From assembly GCA_030390025.1 (NCBI GenBank), contig CM059432.1, positions 71,488,001-71,548,000 on the forward strand: DNA of 60,000 bases, given 5' to 3'. The translations under genes were made by a program, and so were the position numbers. Below are positions 4,520-60,000 of the stretch, one piece after another. Below the pieces are notes generated by a model. The model was not told the DNA's origin. It saw nothing but the letters and a program-made list of their open reading frames with translations, and ran no database searches. Within the stretch, counting starts at the first letter, position 1. Each line of letters starts with the position of its first letter. The stretch is from Squalus acanthias (taxonomy: Eukaryota).

Positions 4520-4681
4520 ACGCAACCCCAATTCAACAATAGTCCCACACCTTACCTTCCCTCTGCTACTGACAATCACAGTATCCTCGTAGTCACAATG
4601 CTGTAATAAAAGCCACCACAAAAGAAACATTCCAATCCAACTTTATACATGAATCCATCCAATATTGCATAACAAAGTCAA

Positions 4682-15045: not shown

Positions 15046-15268
15046 ATGGCCACGCCTATGGAATAATAGAGCGCTTGGGTGAGTTTCATCGTGACTGAGA
15101 GACTTTCGGAGCATATGTGGAGTGGCTAGAAATGTTTTTCACCGCGAGTAATATTGTCGAAGTCCCCGATGATGTAAACCGTAACTGGACGGTTTTAGAA
15201 ATGAAACGGGCTATTTTTTTGACTAATGCAGGCCCCGAGGTGTATGAAACCCTGAAAAATTTGCTGTA
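15046..15268 (+). pseudogene. Gypsy gag N-terminus (truncated)
   Basis: MATPMGIIERLGEF..AYVEWLEMFF...KRAIFLTNAGPEVYETLKNLL, typical of K02A2.6-like gag. Confidence 0.75.
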
Positions 15269-15269
15269 A

Positions 15270-15810
15270 AATATCTACGCATTTACCTGGTGGCCCGGGA
15301 GATACGGAGGCTTGTAATCCTGGGCCTCTCTGGGTACACGCGGGCAGAGGTCAACATATCCCAGGGCGCATGCGGTTCGCAAGTGCCCCTGGGATCACAT
15401 GGGTTGGCTCAACCAATAAAAGAAGGGAATCCCCATTCATACTTATGGGAGTTCTGTACGTACAGAACTTCCATAAGTATGAATGGGGATCACTTAAAAA
15501 TACACGAACACATGAAATAATTTTTTTTTAAATTACATATTTAAAATTAATTAAAATGCCGTTTATTTAAATATTTTAAACAGGCGTAAGAATTTCACGG
15601 GCATTCAGCGGGCAGAAGTTGGGCAAATAGCACAACTCTGCACCCGCAGAGGACCTTCACCCGGGGATGCGGAAGATCTGTCAAGATTGACATATCGCAA
15701 GTTCCAGGTTTTAGCGCATGCACTTCGCATGCCTAAACCCGGAACTTGCACGGCCCCTATGGGCGCATGCGCACCTCATATGCACCCGTAGGGTCACAAA
15801 ATATGGCCCA
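15270..15810 (-). mobile_element. Partial MITE, same family as the Penelope host at 38893-42266
   Basis: Reverse-complement similarity to 38893-39387 and 42051-42200. Ends AAATATGGCCC. Confidence 0.8.
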
Positions 15811-21786: not shown

Positions 21787-22679
21787 GGGGGGAAAATTCA
21801 GTTGGTTGCGCCTCCCGTTAGCGCCTTAAGAGGGCGCTAATGGGGCGCAAAGCATCTAGCGCCCAGGCGCGGCGAAGTTTGCACCGCTCGCGAAATTAAC
21901 TAGACATTTTGCGGCGGCGCTAAACACTACCGCCACGATCTCCTGCGCCGGCAGATCATGACGTCACTCGAGTGCGCAACGCCCCGGTATCGCCCCGGAG
22001 CGGATATTGAGTGGCGCCCCCTGCCTTACCGCCTGACGCTAGCAACGACAGGTTGAGGGGAGCGTTCTGCAGTCATGAAGGGAAAGGGGGAGCGCTATTT
22101 AAAGGTGACCGCTTCCTGCCTTTTATTGTTGGTGCCATTTTTGAACTACGCATTCTGAGAGAGAGATGGAGAGACTTCTGGAGAGATTCAACGTTGTGTG
22201 AAGGAGTTTTGGGTACTGAGCAGCACTTTGCAGGTTAATTTTGATTTGCCATTCCTTGTATCGATTTAGCAGAGACTGTGGGGGCTGCACTCTGAGCTCT
22301 TTGCCTGGTACTCTCCATTGTTCTTTCCAGCACATTTGATGTGCAGGTCTCTCCAGGCCGAGATTCAAGGCTGCAATGAGCAGGATGTGGATGGAAAGCA
22401 AGATTAACCATCCCCTTTAAGAACTGGCCCGTGCCATTGTGTATGTGTTCCATTGCTGACTGACATTACATGAGCTTCGCCAGCGCTCTGAGGTAGCGCC
22501 TCGCTCCTCGGCCTTTGCGCCTTAAGACAGGTGTGAAGCGCCTGATATAGCGCTGCAATCACCTCCAGGGGCGATAAAAGTCAAGTTTGCAGTCGGTGGC
22601 GATAATTAGCGCCAGGCGCTAATCTTTGCGCCCGGCCGATAATTGCGCTCCAAATGGGGCGATACTGAATTTCTCCCCC
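21787..22679 (+). mobile_element. Non-autonomous Harbinger element (893-bp family, copy 2, divergent arms)
   Basis: TIR GGGGGGAAAATTCAG / CTGAATTTCTCCCCC, TSD ATA. Confidence 0.92.
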
Positions 22680-22733
22680 ATAGATACTCCTTTAACGATA
22701 AAGGTGACATGAATGTTATATACAGATAAATAC

Positions 22734-27102: not shown

Positions 27103-28634
27103 ACTACAACAACAACAACTTGCATTTATATAGTGCCTTTAACGTTAGCACAGCAGCAGCCTGGACTCTGCAAAGGAGTGGGGACCTTCAGAAAGAAATC
27201 AAAAATAAATCCATTTTTGTGTTTGCAACTAAGGTATAATTCTGATGGGAATCCAACAATCACAGTTGCAGGATGAATTATATACACTTCTGTGAGAATT
27301 TGGATGCAGGTGTAAGCTGGCAGAGCAAAGATCAGATTTAGAATTGCAATGGTAGTGGAGCTAAAATGCTAAAGGAAAATGAGCTTAAATAACTGCAGTA
27401 AGGCTTGTCTCTACAAACCCCACTTTCTTGCTTTTGCCCATAAAATTGGTGTCATATTTTCTTTCTTGTAAGTGTGAATTGATTGTGCCCCTACACAATG
27501 AGACATAAATTAAACATTACCTTACACACAATCTGGGAACCCAAACTAACAGAAATTGAAAATTATTTAATCATCGCTACTATTATGATGTGACATCAAA
27601 GTTTTGTGTTGATTTGAACTGGAACTGTGAACTACTGAAGTCAATACAGTCCTCCCTTAAAATAATACACTTCCTAGGAGGCAAGGGTGAGAACGAGGTT
27701 TTGTATTGTATTGTATATGTGAAGCATGTGTAAAAACATTATTGGAAGTATACAAATGTTAATATTATATATCATAATCAATGATGCTTTTCAGTCATTT
27801 CACATAACTTAGCATAGTGCAAAATACACTGGTCAATGTAATGTAGCTAATTTGTATCAACAATTGTAGCACTTATCCATTCATTGGTTAATACCAAATA
27901 AGAATGGAAAACGCTGGAGTTACACGGCAGGTCTATCAGCATCTGCAAAGAGAAAAGATCGGTTAATGTTTCAGGTGTAAACACATTGGCCTGGAATTTG
28001 CAGGTCGGGATGAGGGCGAACTGGCAGTGTTCGGTGTCATTCCGCCTTTGAAACTGACTGCTACTGCGGGATTTCCTGCAGATTCATGCAGATCTTTCCT
28101 TTCTTTTGTATCCCTAACTCCCATTCTGAATGCATTATTCTTAACATAGCCCTTTAACAAGCACCTTTTTACCTTTGTTTCAGTACTCTTCTGATACCCA
28201 TTTTAGACCATAAGACGGAGGCTAGCTATAATAATGGAAGAAATGTTCATATCCCCTTTTAATCATCAATTTCATTGCATCTACTTTTTTATTCTCATTA
28301 ACACTGAAAATCTCCAGGTTTCTAGCACAATTAGCAAGAGGACTGGTTGCAAAGGTAACAGTATGTTAGACAATCCTTTGTAAATTGGCAAAGGAGCACG
28401 TGCCTGGCTTTTAAGCAATGGATAATGCTTGAACAGATGGTAATCTTACAAAATTTAAAAAAGTCAGACTTTTTTGTGCTGTATCTGGAAACTACCCGCT
28501 CTCACTTTGAGATAAGAGAATTGCCTTAAGAATTTTATTGAATCTGCCCAGATGGAGATAGCCTCAAGCAAAATTAAATTAACCAAAACAAGATTCGGAG
28601 ATGAGAATTCCAACTGAGGTATCAAAGTGTTTAA

Positions 28635-28730
28635 ACAGAAACATAAAATGCTGGCAGCAGATCAGTCAGCATCTGTGGAGAGAACAGGAAAATTTATGTT
28701 TTGGCTGTGGACCCTTCTTCAGAACTGAAA
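28635..28730 (-). mobile_element. Decayed Penelope-like pLTR end with a degenerate hammerhead
   Basis: Resembles 39430-39525 (GCATCTGTGGAGAGA...ACCCTTCTTCAGAACTG). A similar remnant lies at ~27905-27980. Confidence 0.55.
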
Positions 28731-28861
28731 AATAAGAGGCAGAAAGGCATATTAATACAATCAGAAAAAGGGGAAGGGAACAAATATATATAATAAACAT
28801 AGAGAGGAAAGATGTAACAGATCATCTCAGTCAAGTAATGGACAGAGCATTAAAACATTAA

Positions 28862-29754
28862 GGGGTAGAAATTAGGTCGCGCCCCATTTGGGGCGCAAAT
28901 ATCGTCCGGACGCAAATATTAGCGCCTGGCGCTAATTATCGGCACTGACGGGAAACTTCACTTTTACCGCCCCAGGAGGTGAGTGGAGCGCTAAAGCAGG
29001 CGCTGCACACCTCTCTTAAGGCGCAAAGGCCGAGCAGTGAGGCACTAACTCGGAGCGCTGGCGAAGCTCATGTAATGTCAGTCAGCAATGGAACACACAC
29101 ACAATGGCACGGGCCAGTTCTTAAAGGGGATGGTTAATCTTGCTTTCCATCCACATCCTGTTCATTGCTGCCTTGAATCTCGGCCTGGAGAGACTTGCAC
29201 ATCAAATGTGCTGGAAAGAACAATGGAGAGCACCAGGCAAAGAGCTCAGAGTGCAGCTCCCACGGTCTCTGCTAAATCGATACAAGGAATGGCAAATCAA
29301 AATGAACCTGCAAAGTGCTGCTCAGTACCCAAAACTCCTTCACACAACGTTGAATCTCTCCAGAAGTCTCTCCCTCTCTCTCTCAGAATGCGTAGTTCAA
29401 AAATGCCACCAACAATAAAAGACAGGAAGAGGCCCCCTTTAAATAGTGCCACCCCCAGCCCCACAGCGATTGATAGCGTTCCAGTCTTCTGGTCGTTGGA
29501 AGCGCCAGGCGGTAAGGCAGGGGGCGCCACTCAATTTCCGCTACGGGGCGCCCCAAGGGCGTTGCACCATGGAATGATGTCACAATCTGCGCACGCAGGT
29601 GGTCGCAGCGGTAAGTTTTAGCGCCGCCGCACAATCTCAAGTTAAGTTCTCGAGCGGCGCAAACATCGCTGCGCCCGGGCGTTAGCGGCTTTGCGCCCCA
29701 TTAGCGCCCTCTTAAGGCGCTAACGGGTGGCGCAACCAAGTGAATTTTTACCCC
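28862..29754 (-). mobile_element. Non-autonomous Harbinger element (893-bp family, copy 3)
   Basis: Reverse complement of copy 1. TIR GGGGTAGAAATT / AATTTTTACCCC, TSD TAA (28859-28861, 29755-29757). Confidence 0.93.
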
Positions 29755-30199
29755 TAAAGAAATAATTAGACCTGCAAATTCCTAGTTCCCAAATGCATTG
29801 GTGTAAGTGTGGCAGAGTGGGACTTGTGTCTGTTGAAATTGGAGGAGGATGACCCCATCAAATATCTTGGGGTCAGTTAATTTCAACAATGCTGGTGGGA
29901 CAATGGTAAGAGTCCTGCCAGCAGGATACTCCTGGAGAGCCTGGGAAACTTGAGAAGGGGACAGAGCAAGAACACAACTTCTGTATTTAAAGAGGTCCAT
30001 GCACCCCATCTCCCCACCAGTGATACTTAAAGGGATCATGAAGTACTTACAGGTTAGTTGCTGGATTATTTCTTCTGACTGTTGGTGCAATTCTATATGT
30101 TTTTGGAGGCTTCCTATACTTGGCTAAAGTTTCAATAGTCTACAGGAAGTGGTCTGGCTGGTGCTGAAGTACATTTTTTAGTCATATAAAATATTGTGC

Positions 30200-33100
30200 T
30201 GAAAGAAGTTGCTTCCAGATATGGTGGCCTGGTTGGGCTTCCTCTGGGAATTGAACATGACTGGGAGAATGAAGAGAGGTCACATAGAGCAAGACAAGCT
30301 GCTAGAAGAAGGAGGAGGAGGAGGGGGAGAAGGGCACTCAGCAGGAGGCCATATCCATAAAGGGTCTTTAGGGAGAAATTCTCTTACCTTAACATCAGCG
30401 AGGACCAATGCATGTGACCTCTTCGCTTCACTAAAGAGGTCGTGAGTGAAATCTGCCAAATGCTGCAGTCACAACTGAAGCTTCAAAGCAGGGCAAGGAC
30501 AGCATTGCCTGTGACTGTCAAGGTGACTGTAGCTCTTAATGTTTATGCATCTGGTTCCTTTAGTAAACAGCTCACAGTCTGCAGTGCACTGCTGCATAAT
30601 GGAGGTAACTGAGGCTCTCTATACGAAGAGAAACACATTAATCTCATTCCCTCTTGCGAGAGACAAGCAGGAGGAGCCAGCATGAGGTTTTGCACTGATT
30701 GCAGGCTTCCTCATGGTGCAGGGTGCCATTGACTGCACACACATTGCCTTGCATGCTCCTCATCTGAACTCGGCCATTTTCATCAACCAAAAGTGATTCC
30801 ACTCCCTCAATGTGCAGCTGGTGTGTGACCACAGGCAGCGCAGCATGCAGGTAAATGCCCATTATCCTGGCAGCAGTCATGATTCTTTCATTCTGCGACA
30901 GTCCTCTGTTCCACCTGTATTTAAACCACCAAAGCAAGTCGAAGGCTGGCTGCTAGTCAACAAGGGTTATCCCCTCATGACATGGCTCATGACTCTGGTC
31001 AGGAACCCACGCACATGTGTGCAGCAGGCATACAATGAGAGCTATGCTGCTACAAGGAACATTATAGAGCACATCATTGGCATCCTCAAGCAATGCTGCC
31101 TGGACCGTCTTGGAGGAGCATTGCAGTACTCACCTGAGCAGGTAGCAAGATTTCAGAAAGTATGCTGCATGCTGCGCAACCTGGCTATTATGAGGGAACA
31201 GCCTTTGCCACCACCTATTAAGCGAGAAGCTGAGGAACAGGAGCACGAGGCGGAAGAGGAGGAAGTGGAGGAGAAGGAAGTGCAAGAGGAAGTGGAGAAG
31301 GAGGAAGAGGAAGGGAGGCTACAATATAGACAGCCTCTTTCTGCCCAGGCTCTACATGATCAGATTATTCATGAGCGATACCAGCAATCCTGTTGATCTG
31401 CTGGAGAACAGATTGATGAACTGCTGTGACGCCTTCGAAGCCCCTTTGAACAGTAGTATCCAGAGCCACAATGGCAGCAGTCTGAGCTTGCAAGGCAGCA
31501 GTCTGAGATGCCACTGCAGCACTCAGACTTTTGATGAAAGCTGCTTGTGCTGCAATAGAAGCTGTGACATCAGCCACCAGATGCTGCATCATGGTGGGTT
31601 CCACAGGTGTGCTGATTGAGGTGGACCACCAGTTCCATGTTGGAAAAGGTGGACTCCAAGCTCTGTGCATAGCTTTGTGCCAAGTTGGTGCTGGACTCCT
31701 CCATTCTACTTGACATTGAGCACAGGCTTTCTTGTAGGATTTCCAGTGCACCAAGCATTTGGTTGTGTACACCCATCAGTCTTCTTCTGTAGCTTGGGCC
31801 ATCAAAGTCCTCATCTGAGTCCACTGCAGCAGAAATAATGTGTGACTTCACCCTTCGGCGAGCAGGCATCTGCGCTATCCTTGCCCCCCCCACCCCCACC
31901 CTGGCTCCTGTGCACTTGTGCCCAGTTTCTCACCACATGCATATGCCCCCTCTATCCTAGCCTCTAAAATACATGCTGTGTCAATTTCAAGCTGGTGGCT
32001 GCGAGTGTAAGATCGAGTGACGGTGTCTCTTCATCATCACTGTCTTCTTCCTCTTCCTCCTCTAACTGGGAAGGTTCCAATTCTTGGCTATCTGAAATGA
32101 AAAAGGGACAAGGTTTGGGTTCTGATGAGGGGAGAGGAGAAAGTAAGAAGTGCCTGATTACAACATCTGTAGCTTGTGAGTCAAAAGAGATTCAGTAATG
32201 CCAACCCCACAGTCTCAAAACTCAAGAGACAAACTCTCAAGAATCAAGAGATTTGGTATATAAATCATGAGTTGCTATTTTTCAAACATAAACAAATAGA
32301 GATTGGCAGTTAGCTTATAAAACTCATTAATGGCTTATTTAATTTCTAACAGGTCAGTGCTCTATACAAAAACTATTACTGCACCTGAAAATGCTGTACA
32401 AAAAACCTTTAAAAAAAATCCTAGCTTGTCCGTGCCCAGGTGGCCTGGAGAAGGAGCATGTGGTGTCCGCCGGTACATTTGAGGCCTTTCGCGACCAGTG
32501 GGTACCGCAGGGACTGGCGTGTGTGCTGGACAAGGGTGATAATATTTCATTTTAAAAGTTTCCTTTTGTTTTAGTTCTTTATTAGTTGTGCCCCTATAAA
32601 AAAGGGGGCACTTTTGTTCGATGGGAAGACCCCAATGTCTCCTTATTGATTTATTAGAAAAAGCAACAAAAAAGATCTTATGCAACCTGCAGCTACAGTA
32701 ATGTATTTTGCATCCTGAGCATTGCATGTAGTGCATTGCCCCTTTAAGAATTGTCAAGTGGGGGGAGGAATCGAAACAAAGCCCGGTGGAGCTGGTCCCG
32801 CCTTCTTTTTGGGCAGCCATGTCTGATTGGTCAGCACAGACGTCAGTCGCGGCGTTATGGTACCCAGACGTCAACGACCTGCAAGCTTGTCTTCCGGTGA
32901 GGGAGCGAGGCTGCAGAGAAACGGACGCCATGTTTGATTGTGGAGTGTAATCTGCTGCCCGCCTTAAAAGCCCTGAGATTTGTGAGTTCTATTGTGAGAT
33001 CATGAGTGAGGCTTAATTTTACTTAGAAATCGCATCTCTCGTGATAAATTCGCGAGACTTGGCATGTCTGGAGATTGTGGGATGAGGGAGAAGTGGGATG

Positions 33101-34104
33101 GGAGAAGGAGGATTAGGTATGCAGATACCCTCATCAATGATCCCTCCAGCCCTGCCTGTGGCCACAGCTTCACCAATGCCACTTCCCATGATGGTCAGCA
33201 CTGTTTCCTCCATGGGAGTTAAAACATGCAGGCGTGCTTCTCCTCCTCCAGTTCTTTCCGGCTGCCTCTTGTTATGTCCCAGTTTCTCCGGCAAGGAAGA
33301 GGGAAATGCGTCAGTGAGTGTCCTGCAATATGTTTGGGTGATGTGGCTGTCATGGTAGAATAGCTGCCAGTGTGTGCAAGCTGTGAGATGTGGGTGTGAG
33401 GCTTGCAACAGTGCTAAGTGTGTGAGGGTGAGGTAAAGCATATGAATTGAAGAGTTGAGTACTGATTGATAGAGATTGTTGGTAGGTGGGTGATGGGGGT
33501 GTGGTGAATTGAGCAGTGGATGAGGCGAGTGGAGCAGTTGGTAGGAAATGCCTTTTGACGATTGAATTCACTCACCTCATGTCAGATCGTTAAGCTTCTT
33601 CTTGCACTGCATCCATGTTCTTGGAGCTACACTCCCGGCAATGACCTCCGCCTTTACTACTTCCCACTGACTCCTGAGCATATGTCTCGAAGGCCTCCTG
33701 TCCCCTTGCGGATACAAGTTGTCTCTTTTTCTCTCCATGTCTTGCACCAGTTTATTGTCAGAAAACCTTGGTGCACGCTCTCTCGCATGTTCAGCCATTC
33801 TTCAATCTTTCACAGCACAGAATCGCTTCACAAAGGACTCGCACCACTTCTTCCAGCCACAATGTACCTTCCCTTTAAGAGGTGCAGGCTACCTTTAAGT
33901 AGCGCTGGGCACTCGCGATATCGGGCCCCTGCTGATGCATGCAGCCAATGAACAGTGTGGGTAGCACTGGCTGCATGCAGCAGTCATGTCAAAAAGCAGG
34001 CAGCACCAATTTAACATGTTGCCTGCAACACAATGAACAGGTGCCAATTAACCGTGTACCGCGATCCCCATGCCTGGTTTTGGGGGTTATCCAATTTAAT
34101 CCCC
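30200..34104 (+). mobile_element. Decayed Harbinger: transposase ~30221-31385 (+), Myb-like gene ~33798-31387 (-), right TIR
   Basis: GAIDCTHI, VQLVCDH, YPGSSHDSFIL, acidic tail. MAEHARERAPRFSD...RTWMQCKKKLNDLT. End AATTTAATCCCC. Confidence 0.88.
32193..33070. mobile_element. Non-autonomous TIR element with a 6-bp TSD (hAT-like termini) containing a Tx1 fragment
   Basis: Ends CAGTAATGCCAA / TTGGCATGTCTG, TSD GAGATT (32187-32192, 33071-33076). Sits in a Harbinger intron that is uninterrupted in other copies. Confidence 0.75.
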
Positions 34105-38112: not shown

Positions 38113-38815
38113 GGGGGAGAAATTGGGTACCTTAGCACCTCGACTTACCGCCCAGGCGCGACATTGCTGCCGACTCCCATTAAATTCAGTGGTAGTTTAG
38201 TGGCGGCGGTAACCAGTAGCGCCCCGCTCTGCTGTGCAGGCGATGACAATGTCATCACCGTGCGCAGCACCCCGTTTTTGCCCCACCTGGAAAATTGTCC
38301 CACGCCCCCTGAATCTGCGCCGGGTGATGACAGGACCGATTCAGGGGTGGGAATGGAGCAGCAGGAGGCTCGCGGGGCGGTAACTAAAGGGGAGGTGGCG
38401 GGCGGGGAAAGAAAATCAGCCGACTTACTTGTCGCGGCCTGTTGCGTCTTTGAACGCGGGGTCCTTGCTGCGATCTGGCTCCTCTTGAGTGCCAGGCTGC
38501 TGGCACGGCACCCCGCTCCCCGGTGGTCCAGGTAGGGCCCCGCAGAGTTGTGGGCTTCGGCCCTCCCCTTTAATGAGGGGAAGAGCCCGTCCCTACGGCA
38601 GCGCTACATGGCCCAGTGCGCAGCGCTGCAGAACGCTGTATATTCGGGGTTATCACGTTAAGAAGGAAGTGGAGTTCTTGAATTAGCGCTCTACCTCCCT
38701 CTTGGGGCGCTAAAACTGAATTTCGCGGTCGCCAGCGTTAATTAATGCCGGGCGCTAAAGTTAGCACCCAGGAGATGTTAGCGCCCCAAAATAGTCGATA
38801 CCGAATATTTCCCCC
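38113..38815. mobile_element. GC-rich Harbinger-type MITE (703 bp)
   Basis: TIR GGGGGAGAAATT / AATATTTCCCCC, TSD CTG, TAGCGC motifs. Related to 43439-44165 in the opposite orientation. Confidence 0.85.
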
Positions 38816-39486
38816 CTGGGATATAACAAAACAAGTTTACTTTTGGAGATAACTGTAGAGGTAACAGAAAACGTTTTATGTTGGATAAATATTGGCCCAT
38901 ATATTCTGATCCCTATGGGTGTGTACGCGTTGTGTACACACCCGTAGGGACATCGGAAATGCCCGTTTCAGGCATGCGAAGCGCATGCACTGAAAACAGG
39001 CATTTCTGATCTGTCAAGAATGCTCTTGACAGATCGGACATCTGCCCTAAAGAAGGGCCTCTGTGGGCAGAGAGTTCCGCTTTCTGCAGATTCTCCGCCC
39101 GCAGAAAACCTTTAGAAATCTTACGCCTGGTAAAAGCAGTTGAAAAAAAGTAAAAAAAATATTTTTTTTTCACTCATTTATAATTTTAAAATAGTTTTTA
39201 AAAAGGTAAGTTTATTTTTAGCCCCGTAAAAAACTTTAATTACTTTTTCCAAAAAATTAAATTTTTGTTTCAAATATTTAATTTAATGTAATTTTAACTC
39301 ATTTTAAAAACGTGTTTTAGTGTCTTTTTGGGGTGATTTGATAGGTCTATCTGTCAAAAGTATGAAGGGAGATTCCCTTCTCCTATTACGATAGCAAAAT
39401 ACTGCAGATGCTGGAAATCCGAAATAACAACAGAAAACGCTGGAAAAACTCAGCAGGCCAGGCAGCATCCGTGGAGAGAGAAAGAG

Positions 39487-39523
39487 AGTTGACGTTTCAG
39501 GTCGATGACCTTTCATCAGAACT
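39487..39523 (-). ncRNA. Minimal type I hammerhead ribozyme (inverted-arm copy)
   Basis: Exact reverse complement of 41951-41987. Confidence 0.85.
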
Positions 39524-40314
39524 GGGAAGAGCTGGAAATCAAATAGATTTAAGGCCAGGGTAAAGCTGGGAAAAGGGGGAGGGGATAAAGGAACAAAGGA
39601 GGAGATGAAGAGACATTAAGAGACATTAAGAGATATGCAAGGCTAGAGGTGGTGTTAATGTGACAGATTAAGGCTGAATGAAGTGTGAAATCTACTGGCA
39701 GAATGAAGGACAGCTGCCAGCTTCTAGGAGGAAAAAAAAGGGTGGGGGGGACAAATAAAAGGGTGGATAAAATAAAATATAAATGTGATTGGAGCTGAGG
39801 TTATGATCTAAAATTGTTGAACTCGATATTGAGTCCAGAGGGCTGTAGCGTGCCTAAACGAAAGATGAGGTGCTGTTCCTCGAGCTTACGCTGAGCTTCC
39901 GTGGAACAGTGTATTAGGCCGAGGACGGTGAGGTCAGAGTGGGAGTGAAGCGGTGAATTAAAGTGACAGGCCACCGGGAGCTCGGGGTCCCCCTTACGGA
40001 CTGAACGGAGGTGTTCCGCAAAGCGGTCACCCAATCTGCGTTTGGTCTCCCCAATGTAGAGGAGTCCACATCGTGAGCAGCGAATACAGTATACTAAATT
40101 GCAGGAAGTACAAGTAAATCGCTGTTTCACCTGGAAGGGGTGTTTGGGGCCCTGGACAGTGGGAAGAGGGGAGGTATAAGGGCATGTGTTGCATCTCCTG
40201 CGCGTGCACGGGAAGGTGCCGGGCGAAGGGGAAGGGGTGCTGGGGGTGGTAGAGGAGTGGACTAGGGTGTCGCGGAGGGAGTGGTCCCTGCGGAATGCTG
40301 AAAGGGGAGGTGAG

Positions 40315-41673
40315 GTACAATCCCTCTACACCTCCATTCCCCACCAGGATGGCCTGAGGGCGCTCCGCTTCTTCCTTGAACAGAGGCCCAACCAGTCCCC
40401 ATCCACCACCACCCTCCTCCGCCTGGCTGAACTTGTTCTCACATTGAACAACTTCTCCTTTGACTCTACCCATTTCCTCCAAATTAAAGGTGTTGCTATG
40501 GGTACCCGCATGGGTCCTAGCTATGCCTGCCTTTTCGTGGGATATGTGGAACACTCTTTGTTCCAGTCCTACTCGGGTCCCCTCCCTCACCTCTTTTTCC
40601 GGTACATTGATGACTGTATCGGTGCCGTCTCCTGCTCTCGCCCTGAACTAGAACATTTCATTCACTATGCTTCCAATTTCCACCCTTCCCTCACCTTCAC
40701 ATGGTCCATCTCCGACTCTTCTCTTCCCTTCCTCGACTTCTCCATCTCCATCTCTGGGGATAGGTTATTGACTAACATTCACTACAAGCCCACCGACTCC
40801 CACAGCTACCTGGACTACACTTCCTCCCACCCCGCCTCCTGTAAGGACTCTATTCCATTCTCCCAGTTTCTCCGTCTCCGCCGCATCTGCTCTGATGATG
40901 CCACCTTCCATACCAGTGCTTCCGACATGTCTTCCTTTTTCCTCAACCGAGGATTCCCCTCTACCGTGGTCGACACGGCCCTCGACCGTGTCCGTTCTAT
41001 CTCCCGCACATCTGCCCTCACCCCTGCCCCTCCCTCCCGGAACCACGATAGGGTTCCCCTTGTCCTCACCTTTCACCCCACCAGCCTCCACATTCAACGG
41101 ATCATCCTCCGCCATTTCCGCCACCTCCAGCGTGATCCCACCACCAAACACATCTTCCCCTCACCTCCCCTTTCAGCATTCCGCAGGGACCACTCCCTCC
41201 GCGACACCCTAGTCCACTCCTCTACCACCCCCAGCACCCCTTCCCCTTCGCCCGGCACCTTCCCGTGCACGCGCAGGAGATGCAACACATGCCCTTATAC
41301 CTCCCCTCTTCCCACTGTCCAGGGCCCCAAACACCCCTTCCAGGTGAAACAGCGATTTACTTGTACTTCCTGCAATTTAGTATACTGTATTCGCTGCTCA
41401 CGATGTGGACTCCTCTACATTGGGGAGACCAAACGCAGATTGGGTGACCGCTTTGCGGAACACCTCCGTTCAGTCCGTAAGGGGGACCCCGAGCTCCCGG
41501 TGGCCTGTCACTTTAATTCACCGCTTCACTCCCACTCTGACCTCACCGTCCTCGGCCTAATACACTGTTCCACGGAAGCTCAGCGTAAGCTCGAGGAACA
41601 GCACCTCATCTTTCGTTTAGGCACGCTACAGCCCTCTGGACTCAATATCGAGTTCAACAATTTTAGATCATAA
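40315..41673 (+). CDS. 5'-truncated but uninterrupted PLE reverse transcriptase + Cys-rich linker + GIY-YIG endonuclease
   Basis: VQSLYTSIP, GVAMGTRMGPSYA, RYIDD, PFLD, YKPT, C..RRCNTC, VYCIRC..CGLLYIGETKR..R..EH, E, GLN. The ORF track's first 43 aa come from the inverted arm. Confidence 0.95.
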   Translation, partial: VQSLYTSIPHQDGLRALRFFLEQRPNQSPSTTTLLRLAELVLTLNNFSFDSTHFLQIKGVAMGTRMGPSYACLFVGYVEHSLFQSYSGPLPHLFFRYIDDCIGAVSCSRPELEHFIHYASNFHPSLTFTWSISDSSLPFLDFSISISGDRLLTNIHYKPTDSHSYLDYTSSHPASCKDSIPFSQFLRLRRICSDDATFHTSASDMSSFFLNRGFPSTVVDTALDRVRSISRTSALTPAPPSRNHDRVPLVLTFHPTSLHIQRIILRHFRHLQRDPTTKHIFPSPPLSAFRRDHSLRDTLVHSSTTPSTPSPSPGTFPCTRRRCNTCPYTSPLPTVQGPKHPFQVKQRFTCTSCNLVYCIRCSRCGLLYIGETKRRLGDRFAEHLRSVRKGDPELPVACHFNSPLHSHSDLTVLGLIHCSTEAQRKLEEQHLIFRLGTLQPSGLNIEFNNFRS

Positions 41674-41950
41674 CCTCAGCTCCAATCACATTTATATTTT
41701 ATTTTATCCACCCTTTTATTTGTCCCCCCCACCCTTTTTTTTCCTCCTAGAAGCTGGCAGCTGTCCTTCATTCTGCCAGTAGATTTCACACTTCATTCAG
41801 CCTTAATCTGTCACATTAACACCACCTCTAGCCTTGCATATCTCTTAATGTCTCTTAATGTCTCTTCATCTCCTCCTTTGTTCCTTTATCCCCTCCCCCT
41901 TTTCCCAGCTTTACCCTGGCCTTAAATCTATTTGATTTCCAGCTCTTCCC

Positions 41951-41987
41951 AGTTCTGATGAAAGGTCATCGACCTGAAACGTCAACT
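41951..41987 (+). ncRNA. Minimal type I hammerhead ribozyme in the PLE pLTR
   Basis: AGUU-CUGAUGA-A-AGGUC-AUC-GACCU-GAAAC-GUC-AACU. Predicted cleavage after GUC at 41983. Confidence 0.87.
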
Positions 41988-42959
41988 CTCTTTCTCTCTC
42001 CACGGATGCTGCCTGGCCTGCTGAGTTTTTCCAGCGTTTTCTGTTGTTATTTCCCTTCTCCTATTGGCTGGCCTGGCCCACGTGATCCCAGGGACGCTTG
42101 TGAACTGCATGCGCCCCTGGGATACGTGGGCCCTGCGCATTTCGACTGTGGAGAGGCCCAGGAGCGGAAGTGTCCGGACCTCGGAACCCCTCAGGTAAGT
42201 TCGTAGATTTTTTTCCGATAGGAGACATCCGCACGCAGGAAGCCTCCTATCGGAAATTACGGGCCCACTAAGTTAGCAGAAAGACAAAATTCCAACAAAG
42301 TGTTCCCATCAATCCCCAATTACCATTATCGTGCTACTAATATGAGGTTGTAAAGTGCAGAACACTTCGTGCTGCATTTTGCTAGATGTTCTCATAAAAC
42401 CTAATGTATAGTTATAATAAAACTGGAGATTAGCATTTGAGCAGCATCCTTTTGTATATGGAGCGTTACACCACTGCGTATAGTACAAGAAATCTCATTA
42501 AACTTCTTGACAATATATTCACTTTATTTCAGTAGAAAGATCACATCCACTGTATTATTAATATTACCCATGTTTATGACCCATAAAACTACGGATGATT
42601 TTCCTGGCTCTGCACCCAGGCACACTGGATCGTCTGGGCACAGTGAATATCAGAAAATCGGGTGGGTCGGAGCACATGTCTTTAAAGTTTGAATCGCGAG
42701 TAAAAAATATTTTTGCATTTTCAATTACATTTTGCTGCATTTTTGCCACAAGCATTAGTTGGTTTTCCTGGGTAGACTGCCATTTTTGACTTTTTAAAAT
42801 ACTTTTCTTCATTATTCTTGGTCATTGCTGCCATTTAAATAGCACCATACAAAGTGACGAGGATGGGAATTCCTTTGAGGGTCCCCATTGCACTACATAA
42901 TTTATTTGAGGAAGACAATTTCACGAGTGGACAAAAAAGTCAGAGGTAATGACATCTGA

Positions 42960-46451: not shown

Positions 46452-48704
46452 GGGGGAGTAATTCGGTAGCTTAGTGCTTCCAGTTAGCACCTGGTGGTGG
46501 TGCTAATGGGGCGCTGAGGCAGTAGCACCACGGCGAGGCGAATCCAGCGGCGCATGCCAAATTCGGCCCCCCGTAGTGCCGCCACTACGAGTCAGCGCCG
46601 GGGACTTCAGTGCCAGGCAGATCGTGACGTCAGCGAGTGTGCAACGCTCACTGGGCGCCCGATCTGCCAAATTGAGTATTGGCCCCCTGCCTTAGTGCCT
46701 GGTCCTGACAGCGACAGGGAGAGGAGGCATCAAACAGGCGGATGTTGGCTCCAGGGGCGCCACTTAAAGGGATCATTACTAATGAGTCGCAGCTGTCAGG
46801 TTAGTGGTGTTTCACTGCTTCCTTGTCAGTTTGGGATAGTTAAAGAGTTGAATTCATTCATTCAAAGGTTGTTTAGTCACCGGAGTGTTGCGGCTTCTAA
46901 AAGTTAGTTACATTTATTCTCACAAAATATCAAAGTGCTTCCTTACATTAATGGGGGCTATACTGGCAGTCGACCTCGCCCTCCAGGATCTACTGCGGCA
47001 GGAGCGCAGGCAGTGAGAAAGATTGGAAAATGTGGCCAGAGGGAGGAGGAGGGCCATCAGGGCTCTCAACAGGAGGCCTTACCCTCTGAGGGTCTTCTGA
47101 CAGCAATTCTCCGACCTTCAATTTATCCAGGAGCAGTGTATTAGAAGGCACCGCTTCAGTAAGGAGGTGATCACAGAACTCTGCCACCTCCTGCAACCAG
47201 ACCTCCAGTCTCAGATCAGGACAAGGATGGCTCTCTCAGTGGCAGTCAAGGTCACCGTCACAACAGGAGATATAGGTAACATCTCGCAGCTCGCCGTCCA
47301 TTGCTGCATCCGGGAGGTCACAGAGGCTCTCTACAGTAGGAGAAGGGACTATATTTCCTTCCCCATCACCAGAGAGAAGCAGGAGGAGTGTGCATGTGGC
47401 TTTGCCAGGATAGCGGGATTCCCCATGGTGCAGGGTGCCATTGACTGCACCCACGTGGCTTTGCGGGCACCACATAACAATCCTGACATCTTTCGTAACC
47501 ACAAAGGCTACCACTCACTTAATGTGCAGTTGGTGTGCGACCTCACACAGCGAATTCTCAATGTGAATGCCCGCTATCCTGGCAGCAGCCAGAATGCCTT
47601 CATCCTGTGCCAGACTGGTGTGTCAACACTCTTCCAGCCACCACATCAAGCTCGCGGCTGGCTGGTCAGAGACAAGGGCTATCCGCTCTCCACCTGGCTC
47701 ATGACTCCCCTCCACAACCCCAACACGTCTGCACAGCACTCATATAATGAGAGCCATGCCGCCACCAGGAACATCATCGAGCAGACCATCGGGGTGCTCA
47801 AGCAATGGTTCCGCTGCCTTGACCACTCATGAGGAGCCCTCCAGTACTCACCCACACGGGTGTCCCATTTCGTCGTGGTCTGCTGCATGCTCCACAACTT
47901 GGCCATCATGAGGGCCCAGCCCTTGCCAGCAGGGATTGCGGGACCATCTCAGGAGGAGGAAGAGGGAGAGAAGGAGGAGGAGGACAAGGAGGAGGATGAG
48001 GAAGGTGAGGTGGAGGAGGAGGAGGAGGAACAGGAGCGAGGGGGGAGGCAGCCACTCAATCGGCCTTCCGGAAGGGCAGTCCGTGACCGCCTCATCAGAC
48101 TGCGGTTCCAATAAATTAAACCCCGGATCCCCATTGCTCACCACATCCCCATCATTCCATGCCTGTTGCAGGCCATATCACAGTGCACAGCTGAAATGAG
48201 AGAAAGTACAAAATTATCCGAAGTGAATTAATAAATTTATCAATAATCAGTGAACACATCTTTACAACAACAATATTTACTATTCACCCTTCTGCCATCC
48301 CTTAGTGCCTCGTGTTACTGTGCCTTTGCCTACTCTAGTGCTCCTACAAAGTGTTCACCCAGTAGTTGCAGCACGGTTGGTGGAAGGCTGCTGAGTATCC
48401 GTGCAGGAGACTTCAGATGGCCTTGCAGGAGAGATCATGGGGGGGCGGGGGAAGAGATCGGATCGTGGGGAAGGGGGCAGATCACAGAAGGTTTGCTTGA
48501 GGAGCCGGGGGAAGCACTCCTGTTACTCCTGGCCCACAAGCATTGCTGGAAAAGTACTTGCGTGCTGGAGCCGCCAAACCCACCGCGGTTAAACCAAAAG
48601 TATGCATGTTCACAGCAGGTTGGGTTGGGTTTCCCCTTTTTAACAATTGAACCCCCTGCTCCCACTACTCTCCCACCCATCCTCTCATCGTTAAAATTCC
48701 CCCC
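46452..48704 (+). mobile_element. Harbinger left end and transposase fused to the right end of a different MITE
   Basis: TIR GGGGGAGTAATTC, transposase ~46949-48114, switch near 48430 to sequence like 10690-11160, end AAAATTCCCCCC. Confidence 0.8.
46949..48114 (+). pseudogene. HARBI1-like transposase (best-preserved copy, still disrupted)
   Basis: GFPMVQGAIDCTHV, NHKGYHSLNVQLVCD, YPGS, DKGYP, HAATRNIIEQTIGVLKQWFRCLD, CCMLHN, poly-E tail. Confidence 0.92.
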
Positions 48705-51842: not shown

Positions 51843-54800
51843 ATTGCAAAATTCGTCTCCGTAGCGCCCGTTGTTTGGGCGCTACAAGTGCCGTTATGGT
51901 TCCAAACTGGCGTGCACGTCACGCGTGCACATTTCTGGTGTGGGCCGCACCAGACGTCATCTTGGGTAGGGCATTGGCAACCACAACCGAAAGGGATTCC
52001 ACTCCCTCAACGTCCAGCTGGTGAGCAACACTGATTTGACACCAGCGCTGCCATTTTGGAGCTCAACACTCCAGCTAATGCCCTGTTTTAAGCTCGCACA
52101 GCTGAACATGCGTTCAGCAGCAGAACCCCCAGCAGCGATATTTAGAGGGATCATCACCTACATACAGGTTAGTTGTTGACTGATTTCCATAGGCTGTTTC
52201 TGCATTTGTAGAAGTGTTTGGTAGTTTCTAGAGTTCTTTAAAGTTTCTAAAGTCTACAGGAAGTGGTGTGGCAGGTGCTGAAGGACTTTGTCCTGACTTC
52301 AAGGATTCTGCACAAACTACTTGCTCCCAGACATGGGTGCGGTAGTATGCATTCCACCTGACCTACAGCATGACTGGGAGAATGAGCAGGGACCATGCAG
52401 AGCAGGACAAGCTGCTGGAAGAGGGAGAAGAAGGATGGGGAGAAGGGCTCTCAGCAGGAGGCCATATCCATCCAGGACCTACCTGAACCTCAGCAAGGAA
52501 CAGTGTGTCAGATGTCAGCGCTTCACCAAGGATTTCCTCACTGAAATCTACCACCTGCTGCAGCCACAACTGCAACCTCAGAGAAGGGCGAGGACTGCAT
52601 TGCCAGTGGCTGTGAAGGTGACAGTGGCCATGAACTTTTATGCGCGGGCTTCTTTTAGGTTGGAGCAGGAGATATTTACATCATCTTCCAATTTACTGTC
52701 CACTGTTGCATAAGGGAGGTAACTGAGGCTCTGTATTCCAAGAGAGCTGAATATATTTCCTCTCTGGCCAGAGAGCAGCAAGTGGAGCGAGTACGCAGCT
52801 TTGCGAGGATTGCAGGCTTTCCCACGGCGCAGGATGGCATTGATTGCATGCATGTCGCTTTGTGGGCACCGCATGTAAACTCTGAGATGTACTGCAACCG
52901 AAAGGGATTCCATTCCCTCAATGTCCAGCTGGTGTATGACCATACTCAACAAATCATGCAGTCATCCTGTCAGCAGTCATGATGCCTTCATTCTGCAGCA
53001 GTCCGCTGAGCCATCTGTGTTTGAGCCACCACGACAAACCAGAAGGTGGTTACTGGACGACAAGGGCTATCTATTAACAAAACGGCTCATGACTTCGGTG
53101 CGCAACCCACGCACACGTGGGCAGCGTTCATATAACAAAAGCCATGCTGCCACATGAAATATCATCGAGCAGACCATTGGCGTACTGAAGCAGCGCTTCC
53201 ACTGCCTGGACTGCTCTGGAGGAGCCCTGCAGTACTCAGCAGAGTGCGTGTCAAGATTCGTGGTGGTCTGCTGTATGTTGCACAAACTTGCCATCCTGAG
53301 GGCACAGCCCTTGCCACCAGGCATATGGTGACCAGCTGAGGAACAAGAGGAGGAGGAGGAAGAGCAGGAGGAGGAGCAGAAAAAGGAAGGGAGGAGGCAA
53401 CCTAGACAGTTCCTTTCTGCCCGTGACTAACTCATCCAACTGCGATACCAGTAAACGCAACCCCAATTTCCCATTCACCAACAGTCCCACACATTACCTT
53501 CCTTCTGTCACTGACCATCACAGCGTCCTCTTGGCCACAATGCAAAAATAAAAGCACCACAAATTAAAAATTCCAAACCAAATTTATAAATAAATTAATG
53601 CCATGTTGCATACTAAAGTCAACTAATCACCCTTGTGCATTCCCTTAGTGGCTCTCTTCCATGTGCCTTTGCCTGTCCTAATCCTCCTATGCAGTGCTAC
53701 CTCAGTGGCTGCATCATGGCTGGTGGAAGGCTGCTGACTTTCAGTGGAGGAGACTGCAGATGGCCTTGGAGGGCAACCTCGAGCACCTCTGGGCCAAGAA
53801 GGCCCAGTTGCAGACTGCACCATCTCGGCATGGGCGGCAACAGTCTGGGCTGGCTGGCTGACAGGCAACAGCAAGTGCACTGGCGGAGTGGCAGTGGTGG
53901 GAGTACAAATGCTGTCATCCTGAGAGAGGACAACAGGTTCGTGCTCCACAGAGCCACTGCCACTCCCCTGGGGAGGCACCTCAGCAATCCTAGAAATCTA
54001 TTGCTGGACTTCTGTGACACCCTGCAAGCCCCTTTGAACACTGGTATCTGCAGCCATGATGGCAGCAGTCTGAGCTTGATTGGCAGCAGGCTGAACTTGC
54101 ATGACAGAAGCCTGAGCTTCCACTGCAGCACCCAGATGTTGGGTGGCTTCTGCTTGTGCTGCAATGGAAGCTGAGACATCGGCCATCAGACGCTGCTTCA
54201 TGGTTGGGCCCATAAGTGTGCAAACAGAGTTGGCCACCACTTCCATGCTGGAAAGGATGGGCTCCAAGCTCTGCGCAAAGCCCTGTGCCAAGTTGGTGCT
54301 GGACTCCTCCTTGCTCCTCAACATTGCACACAGGCTTTCTGGCACCAAGCATTTCATTGTGCATACCCACCAGCCTTCTTCTGTAGCCTGCCTCATCAAA
54401 GTGCTCATTTGAGTCCTCTGCAGCAGAACTCCTGTGGGACCTCACCCTCCTGGGAGCTGGCACCTGCACTACCCTTGCCCCGTGCCCTGGCTGCAGGCCA
54501 GTCATGTGCAGTGTCTCACCTCATGCAGGTCCTGCGTCTAAGCTATCCTCTAAATTGCGCGGAGTGTCAGTATCTGAGCTGGTGGCTGCAAGTGTGAAAT
54601 CGAGTGATGGTGCTGTGTCTTCATCATCACTGCCTTCTTCCTCCACAAGGGTAGGGTTGCGGTGTGGGGAGGGGGGAAGGTAAGAGGTGCATGCTGACAC
54701 CATCTGCAGCTTTTAAATCAAAAGACATTGTGGGATGAGGAGGAAGTGCGATGTGAGAAGCAGGATTATGTATGTGGATACCAGCATCTTCGATGATTTC

Positions 54801-55276
54801 AGCCCTGCCGCTGGCCATGGACTCAGCGATGGTCGCTCCAATGATGGCGACCACCATCGCCACCATCAAGGCAAGGTCATGCAGCCATATCTGTCCCCTG
54901 CCGATTAGCTCCAGTTATGCACCATCTTGTCCTGCAACAGAGAGAGACGTGTGTCAGTGAGTGTCATGCAATGTGTTTGGGTGATGTGCCTGTCATGGTT
55001 GAATAGCTGGCAGTGTGCGCAAGCTGTAAGATGTGGTTGTGAGGCTTGCAGCAGTACTAAGTATGTGAGGTTGAGGTGAAGCTATGATTGTGAGGTATGA
55101 GTCCTGCTTGATAGAGATTGTTGGTAGGTGAGTGATGGGGGTGTGGTGTATTGAGCAGTGTGTGAGGCTTGTGGTGCAGTTGGTGGGATATGGCACTTGA
55201 AGATGCATTCACTGACCTTGACTACTCGTGTGAGGTCATTGAACTTCTTCCTGCACTGCATCCAGGTCCTCGGGAC
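51843..55276 (+). mobile_element. Decayed Harbinger: transposase ~52333-53454 (+), Myb-like gene ~55276-53623 (-, 5'-truncated)
   Basis: GIDCMHV, NRKGFHSLNVQLV, DKGY, IEQTIGVLKQRF; PRTWMQCRKKFNDLTRVVK followed by a GTCAGT donor-like site. Confidence 0.9.
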
Positions 55277-55400: not shown

Positions 55401-58400
55401 ACATAAGAACATAAGAACATAAGAAATAGGAGCAGGAGTAGGCTAATTGGCCCCTCGAGCCTGCTCCGCCATTCAATAAGATCATGGCTGATCTGATCCT
55501 AACTGCCAATCTACTATCACAGAACCATCTCCTGAACCTAACAGAATTGGACACACGAAATAGGAGCAGGATCAGGCTACACGGCCCCTGGGCCCGCTCC
55601 GCTACCCACAGGGCCATGACCGATCCGAACCTAGACTCATGTCCAAATTCCTGCCCGCTCCCCGTAACCCTTAATTCCCTTTACTTCTAGGAAACTGTCT
55701 ATTTTTGTTTAAAATTTATGTAATGATGTAGCTTCTACAGCTTTTTGGGGCAGCATATTCCATGGACCTACCACCCTCTGAGTGAAGTAGTTCCTCCTCA
55801 TCTCAGTTTTGAAAGAGCAGCCCCTTATTCTAAGACTTATGCCCCCTAGTTCTAGTTTCACCCAACATCGGGAACATCCTCCCCGCAGCCACCCGATCCA
55901 ACCCCTTCACAATCTTATATGTTTCAATAAGATCGCCTCTCATTCTTCTGAACTCCAATGAGTAGAGTCCCAATCTACCCAACCTCTCCTCATATGTCCA
56001 TCCCCTCATCCCGGGATTAACCGAGTGAACCTTCTTTGTACTGACTCGAGAGCAAGTATGTCTTTTCTTAAGTATGGACACCAAAACTGTATGCAGTATT
56101 CCAGGTGCGGTCTCACCAATACCTTGTACAACTGAAGCAATACCTCCCTATTTTTATATTCTATCCCCCTAGCAATGAAAGCCAACATTCCATTGGCCTT
56201 CTTAATCACTTGCTGCACCTGCATACTAACCTTTTGAGTTTCGTGCACCAGGACCCCCAGATCCCTTTGTACTTCAGTACTTTCCAGTTTCTTGCCATTT
56301 AGATAATAACTTGCTCTACTATTTTTCCTGCCAAAGTGCATGACCTCACACTTTCCAGTATTGTATTCCATCTGCCAAATCTCTGCCCACTTACTTAGCC
56401 TGTCTAAGTCCCCTTGCAGATTTTTATGTCCTCCTCACTACTTTCCCTCCCATCTTAGTATCATCTGCAAACTTTGATATGTTACACTCGGTCCCCTCCT
56501 CCAAATCGTTAATATAGATTGTAAAGAGTTGGGGACCCAGCACTGACCCCTGCGGAACACCACTAGTTACTGATTGCCAGTCTGAGAATGAACCATTTAT
56601 CCCAACTCTCTGCCTTCTGTTAGATAGCCAATCCTCTATCCATGCCAAAATATTACCCCTAATCCCGTGATTTTTTATCTTAAGCAATAATCTTTTGTGT
56701 GGCACCTTGTCAAATGCCTTTTGGAAGTCTAAATACACCACATCCACTGGTTCCCCTTTATCCACCCTGTATGTTACTTCCTCAAAGAACTCCAGCAAAT
56801 TTGTCAAACATGACTTCCCCTTCATAAAACCATGCTGACTTTGTCCTATTAAATTATGATTATCCAAATGTTCCGTTACTGTCTCCTTAATAATGGACTC
56901 CAAAATTTTACCTACCACAGATGTTAGGCTAACCAGTCTATAGTTTCCAGCCTTCTGTCTACTGCCCTTTTTAAATAAGGGTGTTACATTAGCAGTTTTC
57001 CAGTCTGCTGGGATCTTTGCTGAGTCCAGGGAGTTTTGGAAAATTATTACCAATGCATCCACAATCCCTACCGCCACTTCCCTCAAGACCCTAGGATGTA
57101 AGCCATCACGTCCAGGTGATTTATCCACCTTGAGTCCCATTATTTTACCGAGTACCACTTCCTTAGTGATTTTGATTGTGTTTAGCTCCTCCCCCCCTAT
57201 AGCCCCCTGTTTGTCCAGTGTTGGGATATTCTTAGTGTCCTCTACTGTAAAGACTGATACAAAATATTCATTCAGTGTTTTTGCCATCTCCATATTTCCC
57301 ACCATTAATTTCCCGGTCTCATCCTCTAAGGGACCAACATTTACTTTAGCCACCCTTTTTCTTTTTATATAACTATAAAAACTCTTACTATCTGTTTTTA
57401 TATTTTTTGCTAATTTACTTTCATAATCTATCTTCCCTTTTTTAATCAATCTTTTTGTTATTTTTTGCTGTCTTTTAATGTTTTCCCAATCCTCTATCCT
57501 CCCACTAGATTTGGCTACCTTATACGTCCTTGTTTTTAGTCGAATACTATCCTTAATTTCTTTACTTAGCCACGGATGACTGTCTTTTCTTTTACACCCT
57601 TTTCTTCTCAGTGGAATATATATTTTTTGGAAGTTGTAAAATAACTCCTTAAATGTACACCACTGATCATGTATCGTCTTACCCTTTAATCTATTTTCCC
57701 AATCCACTCTACTCAATTCCACTCGCATACCTTCATAGTCTCCTTTATTCAAGCGTAGCATGCTTGTTTGAGATCCAACCTTCTCACCCTCTAATTGAAT
57801 ATGGAATTCAACCATGTTATGGTCACTCATTCCAAGGGGATCCTTTACTAGGACATTTTTAATTAATCCTGTCTCGTTACACAGGACCAGATCTAAGGTT
57901 GCTTGCCCCCTGGTCGGTTCAGTTACATACTGCTCAAGAAACCCATCCCTAATACACTCAATGAACTCATCCTCAAGGCAGCCCTGCCCAATTTGATTTG
58001 TCCAATTAATATGATAGTTAAAATCCCCCATAATTATAGATGTTCCCTTATTACAAGCCTCAACTATTTCCTGATTGATACTCCGTCCAACAGAGTTGCA
58101 ACTGTTCGGAGGCCTATAGACTATGCCCACTAGTGTTTTTTCCCCTTATTATTCCTTAGCTCCACCCAAACTGTTTCATTATCCTGATCTTTTGACCCAA
58201 TATCATTTCTCTGTATTACAGTGATTCCTTCCTTTATTAACATAGCCACCCCACCTCCCCTTCCTTCCTGCCTGTCCTTCCTGATCGTTAAATAACCTAG
58301 TATGTTTAATTCCCAGGCATTGTCACCCTGAAGCCATGTTTCTGTAATGGCCACAAGATCATACCCATATGTAGTTATTTGTGCCATTAACTCGTCTATT

Positions 58401-58924: not shown

Positions 58925-59826
58925 ATTGCTAGGGGGATAGAATATAAAACTGGAAAGTACTGAAGTACAAAGGGATCTGGGGGTCCTGGTGCATGAAACT
59001 CAAAAGGTTAGTATGCAGGTGCAGCAAGTGATTAAGAAGGCCAATGGAATGTTGGCTTTCATTGCTAGGGGGATAGAATATAAAAATAGGGAGGTATTGC
59101 TTCAGTTGTACAAGGTATTGGTGAGACTGCACCTGGAATACTGCATACAGTTTTGGTGTCCATACTTAAGAAAAGACATACTTGCTCTCGAGTCAGTACA
59201 AAGAAGGTTCACTCGGTTAATCCCAGGGATGAGGGGATGGACATATGAGGAGAGGTTGGGTAGATTGGGACTCTACTCATTGGAGTTCAGAAGAATGAGA
59301 GGCGATCTTATTGAAACATATATGATTGTGAAGGGGTTGGATCGGGTGGATGCGGGGAGGATGTTCCCGATGATGGGTGAAACTAGAACTAGGGGGCATA
59401 GTCTTAGAATAAGGGGCTGCTCTTTCAAAACTGAGATGAGAAGGAACTACTTCACTCAGAGGGTGGTAGGTCCATGGAATATGCTGCCACAAAAAGCTGT
59501 AGAAGCTACATCATTACATAAATTTAAAACAGAAATAGACAGTTTCCTAGAAGTAAAGGGAATTAAAGGTTACGGGGAGCGGGCAGGAATTTGGACATGA
59601 ATCTAGGTTCGGATCGGTCATGGCCCTGTGGGTAGCGTAGCGAGCCCAGGGGCCATGTAGCCTAATCCTGCTCCTATTTCATGTGTCCAATTCTGTTAGG
59701 TTCAGGAGGTGGTTCTGTGATAGTAGATTGGCGGTTAGGATCAGATCAGCCATGATCTTATTGAATGGCAGAGCAGGCTCGAGGGGCCAATTGGCCTACT
59801 CCTGCTCCTATTTCTTATGTTCTTAT
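58925..59826 (+). mobile_element. 5'-truncated CR1 of the same subfamily, opposite orientation
   Basis: Nearly identical to the reverse complement of 55401-56290, 203-aa ORF2 C-terminus, TTCTTATG tail. Confidence 0.93.
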
Positions 59827-60000
59827 AAAGTTTTAGAACCTGGATTACACCAGTAATGACATGAAAATATATCACCTAGAAACCAAGTCATTACTCATGT
59901 ACTAGGAAAACAGTGGGAACTTGTACAAAACTCAACTACTAACAAAATAGCCATACATGAGCACCCTGAATTGTCAATCATTTGTGCTATTTTTCATTTT

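Follow-up and report, generated by a model that had tools for sequence, protein, structure and literature searches.

A head-to-head, two-armed Neptune-type Penelope-like element in Squalus acanthias and its possible origin by priming at both target strands

The window analysed here, a stretch of 60,000 nt from Squalus acanthias (GCA_030390025.1, CM059432.1:71,488,001-71,548,000, forward strand, to which all coordinates refer), carries within an interspersed host repeat a 2.7-kb insert of Penelope-like element (PLE) sequence, in which a 5'-truncated forward copy is joined head to head to an inverted copy of its own 3' part (Table 1). The two arms were 895 nt each and 100% complementary in an exact string test, with a gap of 843 nt between them, and at the inner joint the left arm and the forward copy overlap by 1 nt at 40315. 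A direct repeat of 15 bp (15/15 identical, no extension possible on either side) encloses the insert as its target-site duplication (TSD); the bases TTC at 42051-42053 are common to the right TSD copy and the right arm, so that the TSD is 12-15 bp long. By rough estimate, the chance of an exact 15-mer near both insert ends is about 2e-5 and that of a 12-mer 1e-3, and the probability that three TSD bases coincide with the right arm by chance is about 0.02. The left end carries 33 nt that are missing from the right arm; the left arm is therefore not a plain mirror copy. An original prediction made on this DNA had described the identical arms and their spacer, the extra terminal nucleotides on the left arm alone and the TTC microhomology, and had read the insert as a single event; alignment and sequence comparison bore out all three features, and one TSD around both copies agrees with a single insertion. 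The insert is a single, relatively recent, non-autonomous Neptune-type endonuclease-bearing PLE that was dead on arrival.

Table 1. Positions of the insert, its parts and the surrounding host repeat in the window.
Feature	Position	Strand	Remarks
Paralogous host repeat with empty site	15268..15793	-	single target copy at about 15414-15428
Host interspersed repeat, left part	38893..39387	.	approximate boundary; high contig depth
Left TSD copy	39373..39387	+	15 bp, or 12 bp when the bases shared with the right arm are assigned to the element
One-sided 33-nt tail	39388..39420	-	family match is the inner 28 nt, 39393-39420
Left arm	39421..40315	-	inverted 5'-truncated copy: 3' part of open reading frame and 3' region/pseudo-long terminal repeat (pLTR)
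Mirror copy of minimal hammerhead motif	39487..39523	-	
Forward 5'-truncated PLE copy, about 1.74 kb	40315..42053	+	position 40315 shared with left arm
Open reading frame remnant, 452 aa, no stop or frameshift	40315..41673	+	reverse transcriptase after motif-A Asp, thumb, linker, GIY-YIG
Single-copy spacer	40316..41158	+	rest of reverse transcriptase core with YIDD at about 40603-40614, thumb
Right arm	41159..42053	+	tail-less, stops at the family's other preferred end
CX4CX2C linker motif	41266..41292	+	fits CX2-5CxxC of Neptune/Nematis
GIY-YIG core with two internal CCHH cysteines	41380..41430	+	
Minimal type-I hammerhead motif	41951..41987	+	
Right TSD copy	42051..42065	+	
Host interspersed repeat, right part	42066..42265	.	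approximate boundary

The frame free of stops from 40180 to 41673 is chimeric: the initial 45 codons (40180-40314) read the left arm in antisense and have no counterpart in related proteins, and homology begins at 40315, one residue past the catalytic motif-A Asp of the reverse transcriptase (RT); 18 family contigs of one sequencing run (X1, see below) continue past 40315 into upstream sequence that has the normal motif. The frame had been described as uninterrupted, which holds for the absence of stops but not for an intact RT, which is cut at the motif-A Asp. A search for longer relatives returned 234 proteins, the best with 50-55% identity and about 800-950 aa, and RT-GIY-YIG relatives align over the full length of the remnant at 42-55% identity. 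Eight aligned relatives of 798-955 aa carry approximately 350-450 additional N-terminal residues, including the motif-A Asp, that are missing here. Compared with a complete open reading frame (ORF) of about 800-950 aa with all RT motifs, the forward copy thus cannot encode a working RT, and its mobilisation must have depended on the protein of another copy.

RT followed by a C-terminal GIY-YIG domain in one frame marks the element as an endonuclease-bearing PLE; two cysteines of a CCHH motif lie between GIY and YIG, and pLTR terminal repeats, a tail in the range of 30-40 bp and a TSD are present, as in other PLEs. Pfam scores lay under the cut-offs for GIY-YIG (E 0.00028, 21.5 bits, cut-off 22.6) and RVT_1 (E 0.016). 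The linker motif corresponds to remnant residues 318-326 and is kept in the eight aligned relatives. Such a CX2-5CxxC linker marks Neptune and Nematis, and Penelope and Poseidon have no linker zinc finger (PMC8557442), so the Penelope/Poseidon clade was ruled out. The element is best assigned by its motifs and its host to the Neptune type, the linker motif being shared with Nematis; the identification as a PLE with a Neptune-type Cys-rich linker, which had been proposed beforehand, agrees with this. Neptune PLEs occur in vertebrates (bioRxiv 10.64898/2026.07.22.740005), and the named relatives with highest identity (58-73%) were from sharks and rays among the 120 listed of 1018 relatives of similar length. 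A PDB sequence search with the PLE protein gave 0 matches. NCBI names two ray PLE ORF remnants (P0123 and P0128) after host genes, as kinase-domain and chitinase-domain isoforms, which probably reflects annotation of intronic inserts.

Each arm contains a minimal hammerhead motif recognisable by its core and helices I and II, as expected of a PLE terminal region; minimal type-I hammerheads have been described for PLEs (PMC4209133). The forward motif has a 4-bp helix I, a bulged A, a 5-bp helix II whose first pair is A-U instead of the usual G10.1-C11.1, and a palindromic, rudimentary helix III. Measured from its predicted cut after 41983, the untailed end is 70 nt away and the tailed end 98-103 nt. 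The predicted cleavage base (39491/41983) is C here and T in most of the family depth in all four runs. An Rfam search gave no hammerhead match (one chance match, outside the element), a stem-loop test of the tail was not significant (z -0.58 and -0.86), and an open frame of 43 codons, which starts at the ATG in the hammerhead and continues across the tail, has no visible resemblance to the N-termini of the aligned relatives.

The paralogous host repeat runs unbroken over 15268-15447 (minus strand) across one target copy with 13/15 matches, and both insert flanks match it; the original prediction had placed an empty site near 15410-15445, and the joining of both flanks over a single target copy confirms it. 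The host repeat had been called a miniature inverted-repeat transposable element and is no more than a candidate for one: its ends gave a weak inverted match only, and its copy number is high. A near-perfect palindrome of 62 bp (15429-15490, 31-nt arms, 97%) adjoins the empty target in the paralogue, and at the filled site one of its arms is mostly gone. That the locus is a real, ordinary PLE insertion can be held with high confidence. A fold-back chimera among the reads could have duplicated one arm, or the assembler could have homogenised the arms, as long, perfectly identical inverted arms and the lack of a spanning record among the listed contigs might suggest; such an error is highly improbable, because a mirror error would not yield a TSD or a one-sided tail of 33 nt that matches the family, and the distinct left and right flanks rejoin as the empty site of the paralogue.

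Zero differences in 895 nt place the divergence of the arms below 0.33% (95%). With the mutation rate of the epaulette shark, 7e-10 per site per generation (PMC10587355), arm identity corresponds to an age under about 2.4 million generations, a figure that carries a tenfold rate interval and is borrowed from a different species. For the spacer the observed/expected CpG ratio was 0.64 and for the ORF part of the arm 0.76, compared with 0.32-0.37 for four neighbouring transposable element remnants. Of 17 differences from relatives that fall in the element (from 40 rows displayed, with 240 more), 15 are coding, nine of them synonymous and six not. These values are consistent with a copy that has decayed little. 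The insert had been called young, which stands as a relative statement, given little decay and identical arms, but not as an absolute age, as identity sets no more than the bound on divergence given above. Two other histories are very unlikely: separate events, in which the first copy received a second one at its 5' end by insertion or recombination, and gene conversion between the inverted repeats that homogenised older arms. In vitro, PLE nucleases can act on their own element as substrate (PMC11167929), and the family is very abundant, but both copies lie inside one TSD and none was seen at the inner joint, and the single-copy spacer is as undecayed as the arms.

A search for sequencing runs listed 24, all as Logan contigs and none of them recorded as RNA. 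For the family as a whole, Logan contigs of four runs (X1, X5, X6 and X15; X1 may be the source sample) were placed on 38300-41158, X5 to about 55%, and the counts of loose ends given here come from 24 of 5116 rows. Between 60,427 and 131,701 contigs were placed in the three larger runs. Contigs of at least 90% identity leave the element for unlike flanks at 39421 (95 in X1, 69 in X5 and 160 in X6), and a second exit point lies at 39393 (119 contigs in X1, six in X15). The right arm stops exactly at the equivalent of 39421, and the left end lies 5 nt past 39393. Further loose ends behind 39525 (147, 115 and 159 contigs in X1, X5 and X6, respectively) run into one shared other sequence, which points to an abundant related family that would share only 39393-39525, the terminal ~130 nt with hammerhead and tail. 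Joints between 'opposite strands' near 40310-40316 and 41147-41158 were discarded as evidence; they are the normal continuation of the element past the end of the placed stretch. If the locus were transcribed across both arms, an 895-bp perfect duplex would form and might feed small-RNA silencing or editing; A>G (11) and T>C (16) differences in X15, presumed to be an RNA run, resemble those of the DNA runs and are uninformative on editing.

The two insert ends coincide with the two end positions found across the family, as expected if each nicked target strand primed a cDNA and both cDNAs were joined head to head. We consider such dual priming the probable origin of the two-armed insert, with moderate confidence. 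Protein from an intact copy elsewhere, possibly dimeric, would nick both target strands 12-15 nt apart. The 3' end of the bottom strand would prime at the untailed start (42053, perhaps with 3-nt pairing) and yield a cDNA of about 1.74 kb, and the top strand's 3' end would prime at the tailed start, 33 nt further downstream on the RNA, and yield about 0.93 kb; the template of this tailed cDNA would be a second RNA or the second unit of a tandem transcript. Both start sites probably lie within a longer transcript. End joining of the two cDNA 3' ends, using no more than 1 nt of homology, and fill-in synthesis would then follow. Priming on both strands near the 3' region of the RNA, as already suggested for this insert, is the best reading, but the polarity proposed then has to be corrected, as the tailed cDNA would have begun 33 nt downstream of the untailed one. 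It gains support from the two family-wide end positions and from PAc, the Poseidon element of Anolis carolinensis, whose protein cleaves and extends both target strands in vitro and is predicted to dimerise, and whose cDNA starts at two adjacent internal sites bounding the tail (Frangieh et al. 2024, PMC11167929). In L1, two mRNAs can prime at both nicks and leave an inner joint without microhomology (dual priming; Meyer et al. 2010, PMC2837659), and an intermediate of L1 twin priming has been shown (bioRxiv 10.1101/2024.12.14.628481). Twin priming of the L1 type, in which one RNA gives non-overlapping pieces, was rejected for this insert, in which the 3' 895 nt occur twice.

The identical arms are also what self-copying predicts. 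A cDNA or an antisense-templated intermediate could have folded back near 40315, jumped to 41159 and used itself as template, after which the GIY-YIG nuclease would resolve and integrate the hairpin intermediate and leave a tail at one end. Models of this class are in print for inverted junctions and tails of PLEs (PMC3846280; PMC8557442), and an imperfect hairpin of 10 bp can form across the inner joint (-6.9 kcal/mol). That hairpin is at chance level, however, as 9.9% of 2882 random joints on the C/T-rich strand show folding at least as good; the right arm lacks the tail, which means that no cDNA with its anchor at the right could have templated the left end and that an additional trimming step would be needed; and extension of both strands has been shown in vitro (PMC11167929). 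We regard self-priming as rather unlikely, while keeping it as the foremost competitor of dual priming.

Several points weigh against a recent insertion made by dual priming. In the arm alone, three of the seven listed coding differences were synonymous, and no listed contig of the four runs crosses the locus or its specific joints. The displayed rows contain the end at 39393 for two of the four runs (X1 and X15) and lack it for X5 and X6, and the related family may supply many of the contigs ending at 39421 and 39393. A TSD search in seven related loci found none that was clean or convincing. Since the arms are identical, one and two templates are indistinguishable, and the 1-nt overlap at the inner joint is at chance level (40% of random joints). 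PAc belongs to the Poseidon clade, and its priming is not homology-driven (PMC11167929). Head-to-head PLE layouts were read as self-priming by Arkhipova et al. 2013 (PMC3846280), and the tail was attributed to endonuclease resolution by Craig et al. 2021 (PMC8557442).

More tentatively, an asymmetric dimer might regularly make two-armed PLE inserts, one protomer serving each strand, with a tailed and an untailed start. If so, tail, inverted arm and TSD would come from one reaction, replacing the published reading by self-priming and nuclease resolution. A link of this kind between an asymmetric dimer and dual priming was not found in the literature searched, whose coverage did not extend to older subscription papers on Penelope. 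The locus offers a clean single example that bears on how PLEs finish insertion, its two ends coinciding with family-wide ends.

Elsewhere in the window, old minus-strand relics of a related PLE terminus lie 750 bp apart at 27890-27976 and 28640-28727 (73% and 71% to the left end). A Harbinger-type DNA transposon region recurs in diverged form at four places (2490-6216, 30324-33509, 47052-48429 and 52419-55152), two of them with DDE_Tnp_4 matches, and repeats of about 900 bp lie at 892-1797, 21785-22682 and 28851-29756. Inverted 3' pieces of a long interspersed nuclear element (LINE; 55411-56309 and 58947-59834, 96-99%) flank a LINE ORF remnant and may belong to a LINE that carries an inversion. 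A scan of nine window ORFs, which was not a gene search, revealed no host exon; seven of the nine match transposon domains and two nothing.

The two-armed structure is a known, published and typical layout of PLEs rather than an unusual one. A typical PLE has an inverted 5'-truncated copy upstream, a one-sided tail of 30-40 bp and a TSD (Craig et al. 2021, PMC8557442); in Adineta vaga, inserts of Pen2a_Av and of a Pen2 derivative follow this plan, with a tail of 31 bp and TSDs of 9-10 bp (PMC3846280), and inverted pLTRs with short extensions are known peculiarities of PLEs (PMC8969392). Among 48 related loci, 18 were eligible with at least 1.3 kb on either side of the match, and eight of these 18 have an inverted copy, upstream, of the sequence downstream of the match (two of the eight come from a single site, and one match, at 79%, is weak). 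A distant relative (L023, 2638-6472) has inverted arms of 1142 bp (95%) and an extra terminal piece of 153 bp in a more complex layout. The present insert shares with the typical layout the inverted 5'-truncated copy, the one-end tail of 30-40 bp and the single enclosing TSD, and differs in that there is no direct pLTR upstream of the ORF, that the inverted copy is long (895 nt, 515 nt of them ORF) and that the inner joint has no clear palindrome; its TSD of 12-15 bp compares with 8-10 bp in the A. vaga examples. With the Neptune clade it shares the C-terminal GIY-YIG with CCHH, the CX2-5CxxC linker and the terminal minimal hammerhead. As in PAc, two adjacent starts, here putative, bound the tail downstream of the hammerhead, and in PAc both strands are extended; PAc, by contrast, is a Poseidon element without the linker motif, its first start lies about 85-92 nt past the ribozyme cut (70 nt here), and its start region has a stem-loop, for which no significant counterpart was found here. 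Neither inverted inserts nor TSDs are treated in the main text on PAc (PMC11167929). ATT stands at both TSD boundaries (39372-39374 and 39385-39387) and is the in vitro preference of PAc, a single case in a different clade. Twin and dual priming of L1 likewise prime at both nicks and leave inverted pieces within one TSD, whereas no poly(A) tail is present here and RT and nuclease differ; by analogy, the two-armed insert may be the PLE counterpart of L1 dual priming.

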